64,000 nt of DNA from Anaerolineae bacterium (GCA_027021705.1 JALUTT010000008.1:10365-74364); one strand, 5' to 3'. Positions 1 through 7,389 are shown, counted from the stretch's first letter. Notes: generated by a model not told the origin, from the letters alone. A program made the numbers and translations.

Positions 1-792
1 GTAGGTCCGTGCTTCGGGTTCGACGTGGTCCAGGATCACCTCGATGACGGCGGCCAGATCGTCTCCGGTGGCCAACAGGTAGTTGGCCAGGGGGTAGCCC
101 CGCGACCGCTGCTGAATCTGAGGGGCCTGACCGGCCTTACCGGGCACCTGGCGCTCCAACTGGGCTTTCGTCGTCTCCACGTCGAAGGGGGCCAACGTCC
201 GCTCTTCGACGTAGAGGCGCAGCTCCGGCGCGACCCAGGGGTAGGGCTTGCCCCGACCGGCCAGCACCAACAGCACCCGGGGCAGGGTGGCCAGGGGGGC
301 CAGCAGCCGGCGCTCCAGTTCGGCCAGGAGAGCCTCGTCGGCCTCGTAGACATGGTCCACCAGCAGCACCAGCGGGGTCCGGTGAACCAACCGCTCCACA
401 TCCTGCCGCAGAAACCGGCTCAGATCGTCCAGGGGGACGTCCCCCCCTTGGGGGACCAGAGGGTCGGCCCCCTGCCACCGGGCAACCTGCTTCCCCAGGG
501 CGCGGATCAGGTCGGCGACCTGGTGCCAATCGAGGAGGCTGAGGTAGACGGCGTGAGCTCCCGTACCCTCCAGTCGGTTCCCTGTCGGATGGTCGGATGG
601 GGGAAGGGTCACTTCGGCCAGATGGCGCAACAGCCAGGTCTTGCCGCTCCCTCGCTCGCCGGCGAAGATGATGGTGCGCCGTCGCACTACCTGGTTCCCA
701 CCGATCTCCCGCGCCCTCCTCACCACCAGGTTGATCTCCTGCTCCCGGTTGACGAAGCGCTCGGGATGGTAATCAGGTATCCCATCGTTCAT
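1..792 (-). CDS. P-loop ATPase (AAA_16/STAND-like), truncated by the window edge
   Basis: Not in the ORF track. My translation from ATG 792 (RBS GGGAGGTG): MNDGIPDYHPERFVNREQEI..., Walker A GERGSGKT, Walker B LVLLVDHVYE, GYPLA motif. Open to base 1. Confidence 0.85.
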   Translation of the reverse strand, partial: MNDGIPDYHPERFVNREQEINLVVRRAREIGGNQVVRRRTIIFAGERGSGKTWLLRHLAEVTLPPSDHPTGNRLEGTGAHAVYLSLLDWHQVADLIRALGKQVARWQGADPLVPQGGDVPLDDLSRFLRQDVERLVHRTPLVLLVDHVYEADEALLAELERRLLAPLATLPRVLLVLAGRGKPYPWVAPELRLYVEERTLAPFDVETTKAQLERQVPGKAGQAPQIQQRSRGYPLANYLLATGDDLAAVIEVILDHVEPEARTY

Positions 793-866
793 GCTCACCT
801 CCCGCCGTCGCCTCTCCAATCCCTGCCCAGGATCAACCTGGGGGAGGGAGAAGGGGACTCCATCGG

Positions 867-2171
867 CTACGATGACGTCCCCTTGCTCACATTCTGCTTC
901 CCTCCGGCCCCTGCCGGGTCACTGCCCTCGGCGGACTGCCGGGCGTACCAGGCCAGGGCTGCCTCCAGGTCCTCCGACGAAAGGCGGCCCTCCGGCCCTG
1001 CCCGGAGGATGTGCTCCAGGAAGAGCCGCTCCGCGACCAGGAGCAGCTCCCGAGGGTAGGGCCGGACCTCGTCCACCAGCCTCTCATCGGCATCGTACAA
1101 TCCCGGATCACCCAAGGCCCCCAACCGGTCGAACCGACCTTGACTGGCCGCCAACAGCCGCTGGCGCAAGAGGGCCAAGAGGGACGAACGATTCCACGCT
1201 ATCATAGCAACTCTTGGCTCCGGTGTCAAGAGCTCCTCGACCCTTTCTTGCCAGGGCCTCGCTTCCTGAGGCAGGAACGCCTTCAGAAAGGCCCCTGGAG
1301 CCCGATCGTTCCATTGGCGGAGGAGGTGTAGGAGGGGGGCCAGGACCTCCGCGATCCGGTCCGGGCGGTTCAGCGTCTCCGGGTAGGCGTCCACCCCGTC
1401 CAGGAGCAAGTAGACCGCCTGATAGCCCAGGAGGTCGGTGAGCAACTCATGTAAGCTCTGCCAGCGGCTGTCGGCATCCTGTTGAGAGGAGGGGGCGGTG
1501 GAGAGACTTTCGGCCAGCGCAGCTTTCAGCCGTTGAAGGCGCCGAGCTGTGGGCGGATTCGCCATCGTGAAGGTGGGATCATACCCTTCCCCCAGCACGG
1601 AGAGGTCTTGGGCTGTCTGCACGGAGGCCAGGAGGTGGGTCGGCGGTGTGGGGAGGTTGTGGGCAAGCCAGGAAGCCAGGCGGCGGCGTTGAGAAGGCGG
1701 GAGGTCCAGGTAACGTTCAGGGCGGTAAGCAAGGGTCAAAAGCAACTCCAGCGCTGCCGCCTCTAGGATCGTCTCCCGATAGCTCCGCCGCCGATCCGGG
1801 GGAGCCGCCTGCACGACACGCTCGGGGAGCGTGTAGACAATGGGGAAGATACGCCGCCCGTCCCGACCGGCCCGGCAGGCGTGGGCCAGCCAGACGCGGA
1901 AGGCGCTCTTCCCTCCCCTGGCGGGGGCGAAGACCAGCGACGGCCAGTCTCCCCAAAGGATCTCCAGCACCTGGTGTCCGACCAAGTACTGGCTCAGCCG
2001 AGGATCGGCAGCAGCATCCAGAACGCGAAAGGGATCGAAAGCCAGGCCAAAGGAAGCCAGCCAGCGGTCAATCTGCGCTTCTGGTGAGTCAGGCGCTTGT
2101 TCAGAGAGGTCTGCCGGCGTCGGACGGGAGGTTGAGTTAGAGGATGGATCATCTTGGAATAAGGCTCTCAT
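867..2171 (-). CDS. P-loop ATPase, Sll1717-like; start uncertain (ORF open to 2216)
   Basis: FGLAFDPF..AAAD..L..YLV N-motif, Walker A variant APARGGKS, Walker B VYLLLDGVD, YPRELL near the C-terminus. Confidence 0.75.
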   Translation of the reverse strand: MRALFQDDPSSNSTSRPTPADLSEQAPDSPEAQIDRWLASFGLAFDPFRVLDAAADPRLSQYLVGHQVLEILWGDWPSLVFAPARGGKSAFRVWLAHACRAGRDGRRIFPIVYTLPERVVQAAPPDRRRSYRETILEAAALELLLTLAYRPERYLDLPPSQRRRLASWLAHNLPTPPTHLLASVQTAQDLSVLGEGYDPTFTMANPPTARRLQRLKAALAESLSTAPSSQQDADSRWQSLHELLTDLLGYQAVYLLLDGVDAYPETLNRPDRIAEVLAPLLHLLRQWNDRAPGAFLKAFLPQEARPWQERVEELLTPEPRVAMIAWNRSSLLALLRQRLLAASQGRFDRLGALGDPGLYDADERLVDEVRPYPRELLLVAERLFLEHILRAGPEGRLSSEDLEAALAWYARQSAEGSDPAGAGGKQNVSKGTSS

Positions 2172-2365
2172 CACCCGCTCACATACACTACCATCTTCTG
2201 CGTGTAAAGACCACAAAGTGAATACTCAAGACCTAGGATGAGTTGATAGGCGGCGCTGGCTCATCCCGGGGACCCTATCGTAGCCTGAAGATCCAGACGG
2301 TATTGTGTAGTTGCTTTGCAAGAAGCTCATCCTTGGCTCGCGGCAACCTCACCCCAACCTCACCC

Positions 2366-3757
2366 TCACCAAGCATTCTCCAAGCGCACACCTTTACCCT
2401 TGACCGTCACCACCAGGACCGGGTTCTTGGGGTCCGGCTCCAGGACCTGGCGGAGACGCCAGAGGGCGGTATCCAGCGTGCCGGCGTACTCGGCGGGGCG
2501 GGCATCGGGGTCCCCGTGGCTGCCGGGGTACGCGCTCACGTACTGCAGGTAGAGGGGCCGACGGTGGCAGACCGTCCCCCGGTGGCGGTAGAGGAAGCGG
2601 AGCATCGCCTCTAGGCCGGGGGCCAGGTCCTCCACCCGCCGCCAACCGACGGTCACTCGGCCTGTCTCCTCGTCGAAGAAGAGACGCGGGGGGTGGCGTC
2701 GCTTGATCTCCTGGGATGTGTCGGGGGAGAGGGGCCGAGGCCGACCCTCCTGCTCCGTCTGGGCCAAGTAGGCGGCCAGGAAGGGGCGGGTGAACTCCAG
2801 CCACCCTTTGGGTACCTCGCCGCCGCAGCGGGCCAGCCACGTCGTCAGCTTCCTATCCCGACTCAGGTCCCGGAGGGTGAAGCCGGGGAGGCCCAAGGCC
2901 AGGGAGAGACGGGCCTCGACGATGGCGATCAGGTCCTCTCGCCGCCATTGGATCCGGTAGACCTCCACCCGCCGCCGGGCGACGGCCCCGGCCGACCAGA
3001 GGGAGGACTCCAACTCGGCGGGGAGGAAGAACTTGTAGGCAAAGCGCGGGTGCTCGAAGAGGGCCAGGGTGGAGAGGAAGGCCTGAAGGCTCTCTACCAG
3101 CCGGTCCGGGTTCATCTCCAACCAGGGGGTGACGTCGTCCATCAGCACGCGGACCCCCTCGATCCCGAGGGTGCGGAGCGCCTTCGTCAATTCGGCCACC
3201 ACCAGCATCGGGGGGGCTTGGGAATGGAGCAGATCCCGAGACGGGGCCTGGAGGATCTCGCGGAGCAGGGCTCGGCCTTCCACGGGGGCTTCGGTCCCGG
3301 CCGTGGCAACGGCGTGCTCCAGATCCCCCTGGAAGTACCGGTGTAGGAACCAGACCAGCGTTTCGTGGGCCCAGGGGGGGGCTGCCCCCCACCTCGCCAG
3401 ATGGCGGGCCAGGTACTCCAGCAGGCTGCGGGCCACGGCGTCCATCACCTGGTTCCGCAGGACGATCACCAGGTCGGTGCCGGCAAGGTCAGGCTGGAAG
3501 AGCAGGCTCACGGGCCAGGGGACGAGGAGCCAGCGGGGGGGAGTTCCTGGGGGGTTCCATCGGCGCATCAGGGCCAGGCGCAGCGCCGTCTTGCCGCTGC
3601 CCACGTCGCCGAAGATGAGGGCGGATCGGGCGCCGGCGATGAGGGGAAAGTCTCGAGGCGGCACGTAGCAGTCGCTCAGCCAGGGTTCATCCTCGGCCCG
3701 CAGGCTATCAAAGGCGGCCAAGCCCAGGGGTTCCTGCATCGCTGCTTCTGAAGCCAT
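2366..3757 (-). CDS. P-loop ATPase (Sll1717-like) with C-terminal OmpR-type winged-helix domain
   Basis: RBS AAGGAG; FDSLRAEDE..L..CYV, Walker A GDVGSGKT, Walker B VRVLMDDV; C-terminus LDTALWRLRQVLEPDPKNPVLVVTVKGKGVRL resembles Trans_reg_C. Confidence 0.8.
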   Translation of the reverse strand: MASEAAMQEPLGLAAFDSLRAEDEPWLSDCYVPPRDFPLIAGARSALIFGDVGSGKTALRLALMRRWNPPGTPPRWLLVPWPVSLLFQPDLAGTDLVIVLRNQVMDAVARSLLEYLARHLARWGAAPPWAHETLVWFLHRYFQGDLEHAVATAGTEAPVEGRALLREILQAPSRDLLHSQAPPMLVVAELTKALRTLGIEGVRVLMDDVTPWLEMNPDRLVESLQAFLSTLALFEHPRFAYKFFLPAELESSLWSAGAVARRRVEVYRIQWRREDLIAIVEARLSLALGLPGFTLRDLSRDRKLTTWLARCGGEVPKGWLEFTRPFLAAYLAQTEQEGRPRPLSPDTSQEIKRRHPPRLFFDEETGRVTVGWRRVEDLAPGLEAMLRFLYRHRGTVCHRRPLYLQYVSAYPGSHGDPDARPAEYAGTLDTALWRLRQVLEPDPKNPVLVVTVKGKGVRLENAW

Positions 3758-3771
3758 CTTCACGCTCCTTG

Positions 3772-3921
3772 CCACGGACCGCCGACCGCCGACTGCGGAC
3801 CACGGCCTCGCCCACTCGTTGCCTCATCGCCTCGATGTCGACCGCTGACCACGGACCGCCGACCGCCGACTGCGGACCACGGCCTCGCCCATTCATTGCC
3901 TCATCACCTCATTGCCTCATC
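3772..3921. repeat. Duplicated ~61 bp unit (period 77) built from GACCGCC/GACCACG heptamers and TTGCCTCA-type octamers
   Basis: CCACGGACCGCCGACCGCCGACTGCGGACCACGGCCTCGCCCA occurs at 3772 and 3849. Confidence 0.85.
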
Positions 3922-5815
3922 ACTTTATCGCCCCGCCCTCCTCCTTAATTACCACTTTCATCTCCCCTACGCTCAGCCGGCCCTTCTCCCCGAACCGCTC
4001 CAGCAGCCAGTTGCCCAGGCGGACCAGCCGGCGGGGGGAGCCCTGAGCCGCTTCAACGATCCAGCCATCGGGATCGTCGGGGCGGTCCGGTCCGAAGAGT
4101 TGAGCCAGGGACTCCCCTCCCACCTGCCGGAGACGCTGGTCAAGCAGTTGGCGGAGGTGATCGGGGCTCCACTCTAGGTGGACCGTTTCGACCGTTATCG
4201 GCACGAGCGCTTGGGGCGTTGGCACCGCTATCTTCAAGTAGCAGTTGGCTTTTTCCAACAGCGGGATCATCCTCAGCAAGGGACGGAGCCTCTCTCGGAG
4301 CAGAACGGGGGTCAGAGAATCACACCACTGTTTGGGGATGTCCAGCAGCAGCTCGTATCCCCAAAAGCCCGCCAAGTGTGCCTGGCTGAGGATGACCCAC
4401 AGCGCAATCTCGGTATCTTCTCGCGAGACTCCCGCGCCGGAGGCACTGTCACGAAGGGCAGTTGCCAAATCCCGCTCCACCCCTTTTTCAATCAGGTGGG
4501 CTTCCAGATCATCCGGGCCTATGTGGTGCAACACGAGGTTTGCGACCGCCCGTTGGTGGGTCGGCGACATACTTGGGAAGGCGTTGGAGTTGCGGATCAG
4601 GAAGTCCAGAATCGCTTCGGTGATCGTCTCGGTCAAGACCTCCAGAAGCTGACGGCGTGAGTTCGCTGTGAGAGTTGGGCGTGGAGATAACCAGACCGGG
4701 AAAAGTCCTCCCTGCTCTCGACGCTTAGAAGTCCAGAGAAGCAGCGCAGCGGTCTTGCCCATCCCTACGGCTCCCGTAAGAGCCAAGGAAAGGGAAGCGG
4801 AGATTTCCGACCAGCGTGGAGGCTCCACAAAGAAGCTCGGCAGGTCGGCCTCCTCCTCGGCCCTCTCAGGACCGAAGGGATTCTTTGACCACCCCAGAAG
4901 TTCCAACGCTTGGGCGATCAGATCAGGATCATCAGGGCGAGGGGAAGGCCAAAGGGGAGGCCATATCATCTCCTGGTCAGCGAGGATAAGCAGTCGCCTT
5001 GCCGACAGGCTGCCCTCCTCTTCACTTCGTGCCTTGTCCTCTAAGTAATTTCTGATGCGCTCTTGACGGAGCAACCACCTTCCCCGGGGATGTTTCAAGA
5101 CCGCCTGCTCGCATTCGACGATCCCCCCGGGCTGCTCGAGCAGAGTGCGTAGCCGCTCACCCAGCAGGTTCCCCAGCCGCTTTCCATAGGAACGGCCGGC
5201 CAGGAGGGCACAAGCGTGAATCCCTTCCCTAATGCTGTCAGTCCCCTCCGGCGAATCCAGCAAGTAGCGCCAAGCCCGCACTTCGGAATCCGCTCGCCCG
5301 TCAAGCTCCTCGACCATTTGAATCCAATCACGGGCCCCTGGGCGGTCGCCCTTGCCCAGCGCCTCAGCAGCTCTCGTCAGGGCATCCTGCCGCAACGAAA
5401 CCCGCCAGCGTTTCTGTAAGACTGTCAAAATATCCCTATCCCTCTCCTGCACGGCCTCCCTCCAGAGTTGCTGGAAGCGGCGGAGGCGTTCGTCTTTCTC
5501 CAGACCTGGCAAGGTGGCAATTTGCCGTCCTTGTACTGCCTGATCCAAAGGGCGCTGAGCCTCAGAAGTCTCTTCTTCCCTAGTCCTTGCTGCAAGCAAT
5601 TGTTCGACTTCGGGATCCATCGGCAAAGCCAATCGTCCACACAACCGCCGGTACTCGTCCAACCACTCGTCTAGGAGATTCTCGCGTGCCCTGATCTTCC
5701 GGGAGAGTTCTCGCCTCTTCGCCTTGTCATCCGTCATGAGAAGGTCCTCCTCCCACTCCCGAATGAGTTCAGCAACCTCGTGAATGAGGTGCTCTAGGTC
5801 CTCTTTGCGACCCAT
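3920..5815 (-). CDS. Helical N-terminal extension plus Sll1717-like P-loop ATPase
   Basis: 631 aa; LGWSKNPF..ERAEEE..L.SFFV, Walker A GAVGMGKT, degenerate Walker B YELLLDIP, GSPRRL; RBS GGAAGGGG. Confidence 0.8.
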   Translation of the reverse strand: MGRKEDLEHLIHEVAELIREWEEDLLMTDDKAKRRELSRKIRARENLLDEWLDEYRRLCGRLALPMDPEVEQLLAARTREEETSEAQRPLDQAVQGRQIATLPGLEKDERLRRFQQLWREAVQERDRDILTVLQKRWRVSLRQDALTRAAEALGKGDRPGARDWIQMVEELDGRADSEVRAWRYLLDSPEGTDSIREGIHACALLAGRSYGKRLGNLLGERLRTLLEQPGGIVECEQAVLKHPRGRWLLRQERIRNYLEDKARSEEEGSLSARRLLILADQEMIWPPLWPSPRPDDPDLIAQALELLGWSKNPFGPERAEEEADLPSFFVEPPRWSEISASLSLALTGAVGMGKTAALLLWTSKRREQGGLFPVWLSPRPTLTANSRRQLLEVLTETITEAILDFLIRNSNAFPSMSPTHQRAVANLVLHHIGPDDLEAHLIEKGVERDLATALRDSASGAGVSREDTEIALWVILSQAHLAGFWGYELLLDIPKQWCDSLTPVLLRERLRPLLRMIPLLEKANCYLKIAVPTPQALVPITVETVHLEWSPDHLRQLLDQRLRQVGGESLAQLFGPDRPDDPDGWIVEAAQGSPRRLVRLGNWLLERFGEKGRLSVGEMKVVIKEEGGAIK

Positions 5816-5938
5816 CGGTGCCCCCTTCCGCCTTTCAGCACATAAAGGCTATGACGAGCACGCAGATTAAGCGGACGCGCCCCTCAGGGGACGGTGTGGT
5901 TTAGCGTGGTGGTGAGAATCCTGTGAGGTTCCCACCAT

Positions 5939-5967
5939 AGCTTAGCATATCCGGCCCCGCTTGTCAA
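5939..5967 (-). promoter_or_regulatory. Sigma70-like promoter for the ATPase operon
   Basis: Minus strand TTGACA-17 bp-TAAGCT with extended TG. Confidence 0.55.
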
Positions 5968-5978
5968 CGCGCATCTCT

Positions 5979-6130
5979 GGTGATTACCCATATCTTTGGA
6001 GATAGGGAGACTAGCCGTCCACGAATGGGGCACGAATACACGAATTAGAGTCCGACCCATTCGTGTATTCGTGAGGATTCGCGGACGGCCCGCTACGGCC
6101 CATTCCCTCGCCCATTTGTGGGTAATCACC
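5979..6130 (+). mobile_element. MITE-like element family A, copy 1 (152 bp)
   Basis: Terminal IR GGTGATTACCCA/TGGGTAATCACC; internal CACGAAT/ATTCGTG palindrome; homologous copies at 25396 and 49916. Confidence 0.8.
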
Positions 6131-6283
6131 AACTCCGCGAGGTTCCCGTGAGAGAGACGGGATTTCCTGGCAAAGTGATGATGAGCTTCCTACGCAGAAT
6201 ATACCAGAATTGGACCCTGGTTGTAGAGTAGAATGAAGATGCCAAAGGTGAAGGCAACCTGTTGGTCCAGAGGAGGGGGTACG

Positions 6284-6475
6284 ATGATCCAAAGTGTCAT
6301 GCAGATCGGGTGTGGGGTTTTTCTCGGGATCGGGCTGCTCTTCCTGGCGATGACCAAGATCAGCCAGCGGCATGGGGATGAAGAAGGGGCCGGCTTCGCG
6401 TCTCAGATCGCTGCTTTCTCCTTCCTCCTGGCTGCGGCGGCGCTGTGGCTGGCCTATAGCATCCAGATGGGATGA
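6284..6475 (+). CDS. Small membrane protein with two hydrophobic segments
   Basis: [14 protein letters not shown] 6284, 63 aa. Confidence 0.6.
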   Translation: MIQSVMQIGCGVFLGIGLLFLAMTKISQRHGDEEGAGFASQIAAFSFLLAAAALWLAYSIQMG

Positions 6476-6760: not shown

Positions 6761-7159
6761 TCATCCTGACGGTACCCGGTTTTCTTCCCCCGGCCCCGGG
6801 GCGATCCCCCGCTCCTGCAGGAAGGCCACCACACGCTCCAGGATCTCCTCCAGCGCGAGCCCGTCGGTGTGCAGGTAGAGGTCGGCGTGCCGATGGGCGT
6901 GCGCGAGCCGCTCCCGCTGCCGGCGGACGATGGCCTCCGTCCAGTCCGTCCGCCCCAGCCGGCGGTTCACCTCGGCTGCGCCGACGTCCAGGTAGACGAG
7001 GAGGGCCGGCCGGGCCATCCGCCGCCACATCTGGGGCACGTAGGAGTGCTCCTGGGCCAGCGCCCGGGCCCGGTAGCCCCGCCGCCGCAACGCCGCCGCC
7101 AACGTGCTCTTGCCGGAGCCGCACGGCCCTACGATGGCGATGAGTGGTCGCTTGGTCAC
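6761..7159 (-). CDS. Small P-loop nucleoside/nucleotide kinase-like protein
   Basis: IAIVGPCGSGKST Walker A at the N-terminus; 132 aa. Confidence 0.75.
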   Translation of the reverse strand: MTKRPLIAIVGPCGSGKSTLAAALRRRGYRARALAQEHSYVPQMWRRMARPALLVYLDVGAAEVNRRLGRTDWTEAIVRRQRERLAHAHRHADLYLHTDGLALEEILERVVAFLQERGIAPGPGEENRVPSG

Positions 7160-7389
7160 TTGGTCAGGTGGTCCTCGGTCCTCGGTCCTCAGTCCGCACT
7201 TGGTCGCTTGGTCGCTTGGTCGCTTGGTCGGGTAGTCGAGTAGTTCTCGGTCCTCAGTCCTCAGTCCTCGGTTCGCAGTCCTCAGTCCGCTGCCAAGTCG
7301 CTAGTTCGCTATGCCGCTAGGCCGCTTGATCGGCGGTCGGATGGTTGCCCGGCTTCTCCAGTCCTTCGACTACTTGACCACCCGACCAA
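7145..7389. repeat. Mixed octamer (TGGTCGCT) and heptamer (GGTCCTC/AGTCCTC) tandem repeats
   Basis: Directly visible tandem units filling the intergenic gap. Confidence 0.85.

Follow-up and report, generated by a model that had tools for sequence, protein, structure and literature searches.

The FxsABCT systems are the closest analogue of the locus described here, which lies in a 64,000-nucleotide stretch of an Anaerolineae bacterium genome (GCA_027021705.1 JALUTT010000008.1:10365-74364; G000:C8:10365-74364 in our numbering), referred to below as the window. According to two sources, FxSxx-COOH peptide-processing systems are coupled to AP-ATPase-TPR and TIR proteins, and the peptide is proposed to be an alarm or a toxin (PMC7159879; 10.64898/2026.10.19.760177). 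The four genes at the start of the window, which encode the nucleoside triphosphatases (NTPases) A, B, C and D, are the front of a seven-gene cassette, A-B-C-D-E-GNAT-radical SAM (S-adenosylmethionine), that is apparently unnamed. Like FxsABCT, the cassette has a STAND-TPR protein, a radical SAM/SPASM enzyme, a short, variable peptide whose end is conserved, TIR in some copies and multicellular hosts. Unlike FxsABCT, it has five NTPases, including the A-B-C trio with a winged helix-turn-helix (wHTH) domain, and its peptide motif, (D/N)CAC, is mostly fused to the enzyme; FxSxx, zincin peptidase, ParA, MoxR and vWA are absent. No FxSxx-COOH precursor was found at the cassette, Pfam gave no peptidase, ParA or TIR among its seven proteins, and the Fxs models scored far under cut-off (FxsB 53.7 versus 370, FxsT 43.6 versus 300). 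The cassette thus resembles Fxs systems but does not qualify as one of them, nor as a DS-41, Avs, MoxR-vWA or SARP system.

A, B and C are homologous to the models of both DS-41 (NCBIfam NF053860) and the Sll1717-family ATPases (NF047389). DS-41 is described as a validated anti-phage system of one gene (PMC13092281), whereas the cassette has three subfunctionalised paralogues in a seven-gene operon, and the window proteins fall below both cut-offs. The scores of A, B and C were 47.8, 60.4 and 53.5 against DS-41 (cut-off 370; E 1e-12 to 1.5e-16) and 42.1, 38.0 and 34.7 bits against Sll1717, whose 75-bit cut-off was exceeded by three relatives (87.5, 81.4, 78.1). E shares with the Avs/AVAST STAND receptors an NTPase, a winged helix, a TPR array and an intact Walker A (111/111 sequences), but it has no N-terminal effector and is paired with a sensor-less paralogue, D; against PADLOC 2023 it matched no Avs model, only a generic TPR model. 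The MoxR-vWA ternary systems (VMAP, iSTAND) had no counterpart, as no MoxR or vWA was found among the seven proteins and one vWA protein among 111 flanking proteins. AfsR/SARP regulators have a wHTH at the N-terminus of the STAND-TPR protein, together with a BTAD. As in these and in MalT, the operon contains an OmpR-type wHTH, an NTPase and TPRs; unlike them, the parts are on separate proteins, with the wHTH at the C-terminus of B, a member of a different ATPase family, and no wHTH or BTAD was found on E with Pfam.

The initial annotation had proposed an undescribed signalling or conflict system. PADLOC, the NCBIfam cut-offs and the literature gave no match to a named system, so the first part of this proposal stands, and the choice between conflict and another signalling role, which is unproven, is weighed below. 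The literature search found no description of the cassette; supplements of Aravind-group papers and PMC10288494, outside that search, could list such neighbourhoods. A term search in 7 supplement files of PMC13581612 (the journal version of 10.64898/2026.01.04.697583) gave no match. The cassette is real, conserved and apparently unnamed, and akin to NTP-thresholded conflict systems with an added peptide module.

Gene content and conservation of the cassette

The four consecutive minus-strand genes initially annotated were recovered as open reading frames (ORFs) at 3920-5815, 2366-3757, 867-2168 and from 792 past base 1, each with its own Walker A (GAVGMGKT, GDVGSGKT, APARGGKS and GERGSGKT). 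The flanking 10 kb beyond base 1 was taken from the same contig (L001 = G000:C8). As had been predicted, the operon continues there, with E, a GNAT gene and a radical SAM enzyme on the same strand after D. The operon of four divergent ATPases is therefore real and conserved but was incomplete, since E (STAND-TPR) and the peptide-modifying enzyme were missing from it; the cassette holds five NTPases in two unrelated families, A/B/C and D/E. Where source annotations of these proteins were given, they read 'hypothetical', 'ATP-binding' or 'radical SAM protein'. The cassette genes are as follows.

3920..5815, minus strand: gene A, 631 residues; residues 1-78 resemble a helical-hairpin adaptor, residues 87-300 are helical, and a Sll1717/DS-41-like AAA+ domain with a degenerate Walker B follows
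5582..5815, minus strand: N-terminal hairpin of A, replacing the membrane-anchored N-terminus of most orthologues
2366..3757, minus strand: gene B, 463 residues from ATG; AAA+ with Walker A, partial Walker B, presumed arginine finger R261-R263 and a C-terminal OmpR/PhoB-type wHTH
867..2168, minus strand: gene C, 433 residues from ATG (449 from TTG 2216); ORC/Cdc6-like AAA+ in which Walker A, Walker B (LLDGVD) and sensor II are intact and the arginine finger is lacking
1..792, minus strand: gene D, 390 residues when complete, extending 380 bases beyond base 1 to G000:C8 9984; AAA_16 STAND-type NTPase with a winged helix
L001 6333-9437, outside the window, minus strand: gene E, about 1020-1034 residues (1034 from the first TTG); STAND NTPase with C-terminal TPRs
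L001 5812-6336, outside the window, minus strand: GNAT acetyltransferase gene, accessory, overlapping the stop of E
L001 4296-5852, outside the window, minus strand: radical SAM enzyme R1, 518 residues, overlapping the GNAT gene; two N-terminal DCACPD motifs (residues 20 and 44), CxxxCxxC at 171 and SPASM-type C-terminal cysteines

The initial annotation would have been contradicted by homologues scattered singly; instead, gene order was kept across genomes. Searching 61 related genomes with B yielded 16 regions, most of which share this layout. At E <= 1e-20 the D profile matched 78 of 401 class genomes (weaker matches include other STANDs). Among the 40 of 93 D matches listed, strong ones outside the alignment, E was directly downstream in 35 (contig edge in 1, not in 4, two of these carrying a further D copy upstream), a gene of A/B/C type was upstream in 34 (edge 5, not 1), and a radical SAM gene was downstream in 21 (edge 16, not 3). 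Anchoring on E in GTDB genomes, with 79 loci kept from 133 relatives, gave D upstream in 63 (edge 5, not 11), an A/B/C-type gene upstream in 60 (edge 14, not 5), a radical SAM gene downstream in 47 (edge 25, not 7) and GNAT in 32 (edge 18, not 29). The corresponding counts in the 60 non-duplicate loci were 45, 43, 34 and 22. All of the 79 loci were from Chloroflexota except one from an 'uncultured bacterium', although restriction to the phylum is not established by 78/79 because the search used one narrow pattern.

Anchoring on R1 in metagenomes gave 79 loci (window's own contig left out; some loci near-identical kin). E was adjacent in 55 (47 upstream, 8 convergent), which are all 55 that had room, the other 24 having less than 2 kb upstream. 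R1 lay on the opposite strand, facing E, in L158, L159, L143, L175, L180 and L184; co-transcription is therefore not required. In the de-duplicated set of 117 loci, the order A-B-C was unbroken in 55/55 loci having two or more of these genes, B was followed by C in 54/55, and C by D in 56/58, the other two being fusions. C was matched in 16 of 301 phylum genomes; 5 of the 10 regions examined show A-B-C-D-E with R1, 2 of them in single-contig genomes (G643 and G674 are single-contig genomes that carry the cassette). The cassette is common in filamentous Chloroflexota, with its order conserved in dozens of genomes. Its spread is patchy, and its flanks differ between genomes. Correlations of pairwise identity between components (0.38-0.79) were not used as evidence of co-evolution because kin share history.

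Two NTPase families with divided roles

Profile-profile alignment identified A, B and C as paralogues (A/C E 1.3e-40, B/C E 5.3e-30), and the N-terminal motif F..A(E/D).(E/D)..L..(F/Y)V described in the initial annotation was common to all three and absent from D and E. Between the profiles of C and D, the Walker A was the sole common part (probability 19%). The structure model of C had a predicted local distance difference test score (pLDDT) of 90.6, and in a wide structure search its nearest fold was Orc1/Cdc6 (Z 14.7, root-mean-square deviation 3.5, 252 residues aligned), then MuB, TnsC and a plant NLR. Foldseek with C gave nothing at E <= 0.001, with weak ranks, and a PDB sequence search with the C profile gave 3 chance matches and nothing else. 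By the modelled fold of C and the sensor-II arginine, A, B and C are placed in the ORC/Cdc6-STAND clade of AAA+ NTPases; the sensor-II PR motif is present in 58/58 C, 52/55 B and 31/46 A sequences. Relatives of C numbered 533 at 50% clustering (E <= 1e-30).

A tree was built from 192 of 207 A/B/C-type cores, 15 being too short and left out. It resolved clades of 46 A (support 0.86), 55 B (1.0) and 58 C (1.0) sequences, each including the window protein, plus 33 sequences of a second subtype. The clades differ in the motifs they have lost. Walker A GK(S/T) was kept in 18/45 A, 52/55 B, 57/57 C and 32/32 second-subtype sequences. Both Walker B aspartates were present in 58/58 C sequences; the first was kept in 46/55 and the second acid in 43/55 of B, and the second aspartate in only 9/46 of A. 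The one Walker B that had appeared degenerate is that of A (LLLDIPKQW). An arginine eight residues before a conserved tryptophan, which from general knowledge and the model we take to be the arginine-finger position, occurred in 43/47 parsed B sequences, 5/54 C, 1/25 A and 21/26 of the second subtype. These patterns indicate that the A clade is largely pseudo-ATPase, and point to divided roles in which A is degenerate with a swappable N-terminus, B carries the arginine finger and the wHTH, and C has the complete active site. The wHTH of B fell just under the Pfam cut-off (Trans_reg_C, E 1.4e-5) and resembles OmpR/PhoB DNA-binding domains (RegX3 E 1.8e-11); a DNA-binding output, also proposed initially, has its counterpart in this domain call only.

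The heteromeric NTPase complex of the initial annotation gained computational support from this complementary motif loss and from a predicted B-C complex. In one job, B(5-345) with C(28-415) scored 0.82 versus 0.00 for the best control, the controls being unrelated proteins; contacts shared between runs were >= 94% and partner pLDDT was >= 87. A pass mark of this kind is reached by 116/157 solved and 2/215 mismatched pairs, counts that are rough with the alignments used. At the interface, B 260-263, holding R261-R263, contacts the P-loop (83-84), the Walker B region (258-266) and the sensor-II R373 of C. The prediction supports binding without showing it, because AAA+ rings are common among solved structures and B and C are paralogues. 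ORC is described as a heteromer of active and degenerate paralogues with an arginine finger acting in trans (PMC8195603). The trio is like eukaryotic ORC and archaeal Orc1-Cdc6 in its AAA+ clade, judged by fold, and in its predicted heteromer of active and degenerate paralogues; it is unlike them in its 10-15% identity, its different C-terminal domains and its lack of replication context.

The fourth gene had been called AAA_16-like, and D passes that Pfam model (36.4 bits versus a cut-off of 32.6). E scored 34.8 bits with AAA_16 and also matched TPR_12, its NTPase starting at residue 29. D and E profiles aligned with a probability of 99.3%, D covering the first 440 residues of E without the TPRs, and D is a sensor-less paralogue of the N-terminal half of E that also has no effector domain. 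The Walker A of D was kept in 93/93 sequences. Fusions of D were seen with E (L015, L041, L087), with C (L077) and with SIR2 (L064, L117). Extra D or E copies, or tandem D-E pairs, were observed in the cassettes of L038, L040, L046, L095, L104, L117, L126, L128 and L160. The window's genome (G000) is NLR-rich, the E profile matching about 20 ORFs for large NTPase-TPR or TPR proteins, and at L157 5881-7353 (G000:C87) it carries a separate nSTAND1-like NTPase with a C-terminal Trans_reg_C beside response-regulator-like genes.

The cysteine peptide, slot A and other features of the locus

R1 is a radical SAM/SPASM-type enzyme as judged from its CxxxCxxC and auxiliary-cluster cysteines; C171/175/178 and C400, 418, 456, 459, 465, 469 and 487 were invariant in 31 sequences. 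Its best NCBIfam matches were peptide maturases (nif11-type, PapB, QhpD), all far under their cut-offs, and a conserved 100-residue region before the radical SAM core, considered as a candidate peptide-recognition element, gave no PqqD match in Pfam. One to three N-terminal Cys motifs were found on 50/51 R1 enzymes, the exception being a split gene, and on 58/67 of the metagenome R1 proteins having the N-terminus. Asp precedes CAC in 78/83 motifs, for a consensus of (D/N)CAC. PapB crosslinks CXXXD (PMC12373016), and both window motifs read CACPD, which fits this pattern; an acid four residues after either cysteine was present in 40/83 motifs. R1 thus resembles the ranthipeptide maturases and differs from them in its low scores, its putative substrate in cis and the invariant acid before the first cysteine (D 78/83). 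By this sequence fit, any crosslinks made on the DCAC peptide would probably be Cys-to-Asp/Glu thioethers.

The second subtype mostly carries a different radical SAM enzyme, R2. At R2 loci, a small ORF ending in a Cys pair occurred on the same strand in 8/16 versus on the opposite strand in 2/16 (one of the 8 seems fortuitous). Inspection showed a free peptide carrying a CAC-like motif in 12/16, DCAC fused to R2 in 2/16 and neither in 2/16, some starts being provisional; the free ORFs were 50-100 residues long with the motif at the end. The Cys peptide thus tracks the radical SAM gene, and because its motif survives both enzyme replacement and fusion or fission, it behaves as the precursor of a peptide made on ribosomes and modified after translation (RiPP) would. 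Free Cys-ending ORFs beside R1 were at background (same strand 6/49 loci, opposite 7/49). At L061 14045-14242, a free 65-residue ORF with DDCSCPD stands just before an R1 keeping one DCAC motif, as if the first repeat had split off. None of 8 peptides matched an NCBIfam model at E up to 10.

The variable input domains of the initial annotation were borne out for slot A, which may hold a membrane anchor, TIR or the hairpin. By a simple hydropathy rule, membrane segments were predicted in 38/46 A proteins; 3 of the other 8 were truncated, leaving 38/43 with an N-terminus. The window's A has none by this rule. Its residues 87-625 fit an A profile built without it (E 2.4e-92), and residues 1-80 replace the first 215 positions of that profile. 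Five other loci carry TIR in slot A, and the E proteins of L128, with TIR in this slot, and L130, with a membrane-type A profile, are 71% identical. The TIR glutamate, presumably the catalytic residue, was kept in 10/10 aligned TIRs. TIR was also observed as an insertion that separates Walker A from Walker B within the ATPase domain (L020 6503-8080, L027 9223-10923), and EAD7 inside A/B/C-type proteins of L062 and L125.

The A hairpin, a helical hairpin in the structure model, recurs at the N- or C-terminus of 10 other proteins of the same genome. Among its carriers are one protein each of the NB-ARC-TPR, STAND-TPR and NB-ARC types, a CHAT protease with His and Cys kept, and two proteins of a CRISPR RAMP/Cas6 locus. 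This fits the effector-associated domain (EAD) principle, under which a core component bears a small helical domain at one end and further copies of that domain sit on effector or signalling proteins encoded in the genome (PMC7159879). No named EAD or bDLD model was matched by A in Pfam or by a paralogous hairpin copy at E <= 10. Structure-atlas searches gave no feature match for the A hairpin, only generic hairpin matches, and nothing usable for the extracytoplasmic region of an A orthologue. At the CRISPR RAMP/Cas6 locus (L156 5127-8195, G000:C85), three genes have small helical hairpins; two are the A hairpin, and the third links another hairpin to DUF4062 and Cas_NE0113. Small proteins consisting of the A hairpin and a second short helical domain (L149 4404-4997, L150 4885-5541, L156 6432-6908) could be adaptors between two systems.

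Further features of the locus are listed below.

5939..5967, minus strand: candidate sigma-70-type promoter before gene A, read by eye; TTGACA (5967-5962), 17-nt spacer, TG-n-TAAGCT (5944-5939)
1201..1229 (L001 11593-11565), minus strand: promoter-like site within C; 11/12 matches with TG, about 400 nt before D
3772..3910, no strand assigned: 62-nt repeat, present twice in the A-B intergenic stretch; recurs genome-wide, not system-specific

The single promoter of the initial annotation was legible by eye before A but was missing from the list of a consensus scan (5 sites versus 1.5 expected), its -10 matching at only 3/6 positions beside a perfect -35 and a TG extension. The site inside C could separately drive D-E-GNAT-radical SAM. 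The A-B repeat had 12 matches in 10 contigs of the genome. Short-unit and dispersed intergenic repeats were observed at window 7145-7389, 3772-3910 and 5816-6230 and at L001 9424-9855, those tested occurring in 10-75 contigs. The D-E gap holds genome-wide repeats (94 matches in 27 contigs; 24 in 16), and the idea of a peptide gene hidden there was rejected. The plus-strand ORF at 6233-6475, divergent from A, encodes a two-helix membrane protein of about 63-80 residues; it was dropped as a part of the system, with no homologue in the genome or in the relatives' flanks. Accessory genes were observed beside some relatives, for an NYN-domain protein at 8 loci (L050, L061, L066, L067, L094, L098, L113, L127) and for an unnamed membrane coiled-coil protein at 15 (such as L118 and L130); neither family was found in the window's genome.

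Possible roles of the cassette

We lean towards reading the cassette as a seven-gene, NTP-thresholded conflict or alarm relay in multicellular Chloroflexota, to which a peptide made on the ribosome and modified by a radical SAM enzyme is coupled. The TPRs of E would sense an invader protein or the modified peptide, and E would oligomerise with D, which may also bridge to C (compare the D-E fusions in 3 loci and the C-D fusion in 1). A, B and C would form an ORC-like heteromer in which the arginine finger of B completes the ATP site of C, so that hydrolysis would require both. A would be a mostly dead docking subunit, linking the assembly with the membrane, with a TIR NADase or, here through the hairpin, with other NLR-like sensors and the CHAT protease. 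The wHTH of B would then alter transcription, docked effectors would be clustered and switched on, and the radical SAM enzyme would crosslink the DCAC peptide, probably by Cys-to-Asp/Glu thioethers, as an alarm signal or toxin. In its most specific form, the proposal is an immune circuit that joins an ORC-like heterotrimer (dead docking subunit, arginine-finger donor with a DNA-binding domain, complete active site) to a sensor/helper NLR pair, in which the radical SAM enzyme crosslinks its own N-terminal tail into a filament-spreading alarm or toxin and a new adaptor hairpin plugs in other NLR-like proteins and a caspase-like protease; we regard this full version as tentative and rather unlikely to hold in every part.

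Immune-type effectors do occur in relatives, where TIR, SIR2, caspase/CHAT, HEPN, Schlafen, metallophosphoesterase or kinase domains (Pfam) were found in at least 18 loci, a lower bound, like the other effector counts, as the scan covered only long or slot proteins. Several observations nevertheless weigh against an immune role. Effectors were found in 5/65 loci of the window's subtype versus 12/24 of the second subtype, with one locus unassigned, and the seven proteins of this copy include no recognisable toxic effector. In a flank survey of 111 proteins from 39/65 loci with long flanks, run with no control set, the proteins with a Pfam call were mostly housekeeping; the defence-like ones were limited to a methylase, two NYN, two AAA_14/DUF4143 and one WD40 protein, and no defence-island context was seen. 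PADLOC matched no system to the cassette proteins. A receptor-like membrane protein with an OmpR-type wHTH fits ordinary signalling equally well. For the proposed complex, the C-D fusion is a single locus that may reflect a lost stop, and the B-C pair may owe its pass to a resemblance to AAA+ rings among solved structures. Because of the absent effector, the few in the subtype, the lack of a PADLOC match and the housekeeping flanks, the immune role is held to a cautious preference, alongside a non-immune circuit to which we give a smaller but substantial chance.

In such a circuit, the parts of an AfsR/SARP- or MalT-like regulator would be split among proteins (A as the membrane sensor, the ATPases as a relay, the wHTH on B, a ligand-binding TPR on E) and would control, and perhaps sense, the modified peptide, which would serve filaments as a quorum or developmental signal; immune effectors would have been grafted on in some lineages only. 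The membrane segments of 38/43 A orthologues, the RegX3-like wHTH of B, the weak matches of relatives' E proteins to AfsR/AbsR2-type regulator models, the mostly housekeeping flanks and the 60/65 loci of the window's subtype without a Pfam effector all fit it. It accounts less well for TIR (glutamate kept), SIR2, caspase, HEPN and Schlafen recurring on the same proteins and swapping among close operons, for the DS-41 homology, for a hairpin common to NB-ARC-TPR proteins and a CHAT protease, and for the patchy distribution; nor was a BTAD domain found with Pfam. It is improbable that the NTPases are instead a self-contained abortive-infection module like DS-41 or Avs, beside which the radical SAM protein is an independent antiviral or metal-handling enzyme whose DCAC tail binds a metal or an Fe-S cluster. 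In its favour, DS-41 protects as a single gene, CxC pairs can bind metals, the acid is present at the fourth position in only 40/83 motifs, PADLOC gave weak pVip matches, and a survey of recurring neighbour families found no peptidase or exporter conserved in the cassette. The Cys motif, however, outlasts the R1/R2 swap and ends free ORFs near R2 with the strand bias given above, as RiPP precursors do, while the best matches of R1 are peptide maturases and R1 adjoined E in every metagenome locus with room. We consider it very improbable that the cassette serves a mobile element or replicon as an ORC/TnsC-like DNA machine, with an A-B-C heteromer recognising an origin or target. The nearest folds (ORC/Cdc6, MuB, TnsC), the winged helix of B and the flanks that vary between genomes would suit one, but no transposase, integrase or replication gene recurs among the flanking families, no C relative was found among 102 pattern matches in viral contigs, C had no match in plasmids, and such a machine is at odds with the membrane anchors, TIR and peptide genes.

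If the conflict or alarm relay is correct, the arginines of B should be required for the ATPase of C, and a mass loss is predicted on the DCAC tail. Two further leads are a radical SAM subfamily that is uncharacterised and whose candidate substrate lies in cis, and an adaptor domain that has no name. The cassette would provide a bacterial example of NTPase signalling that is heteromeric and subfunctionalised, in which an ORC-like trio is joined to a sensor/helper STAND pair, and it would open to testing the existing proposal of a coupling between NLR-like switches and RiPP alarm peptides in multicellular bacteria.

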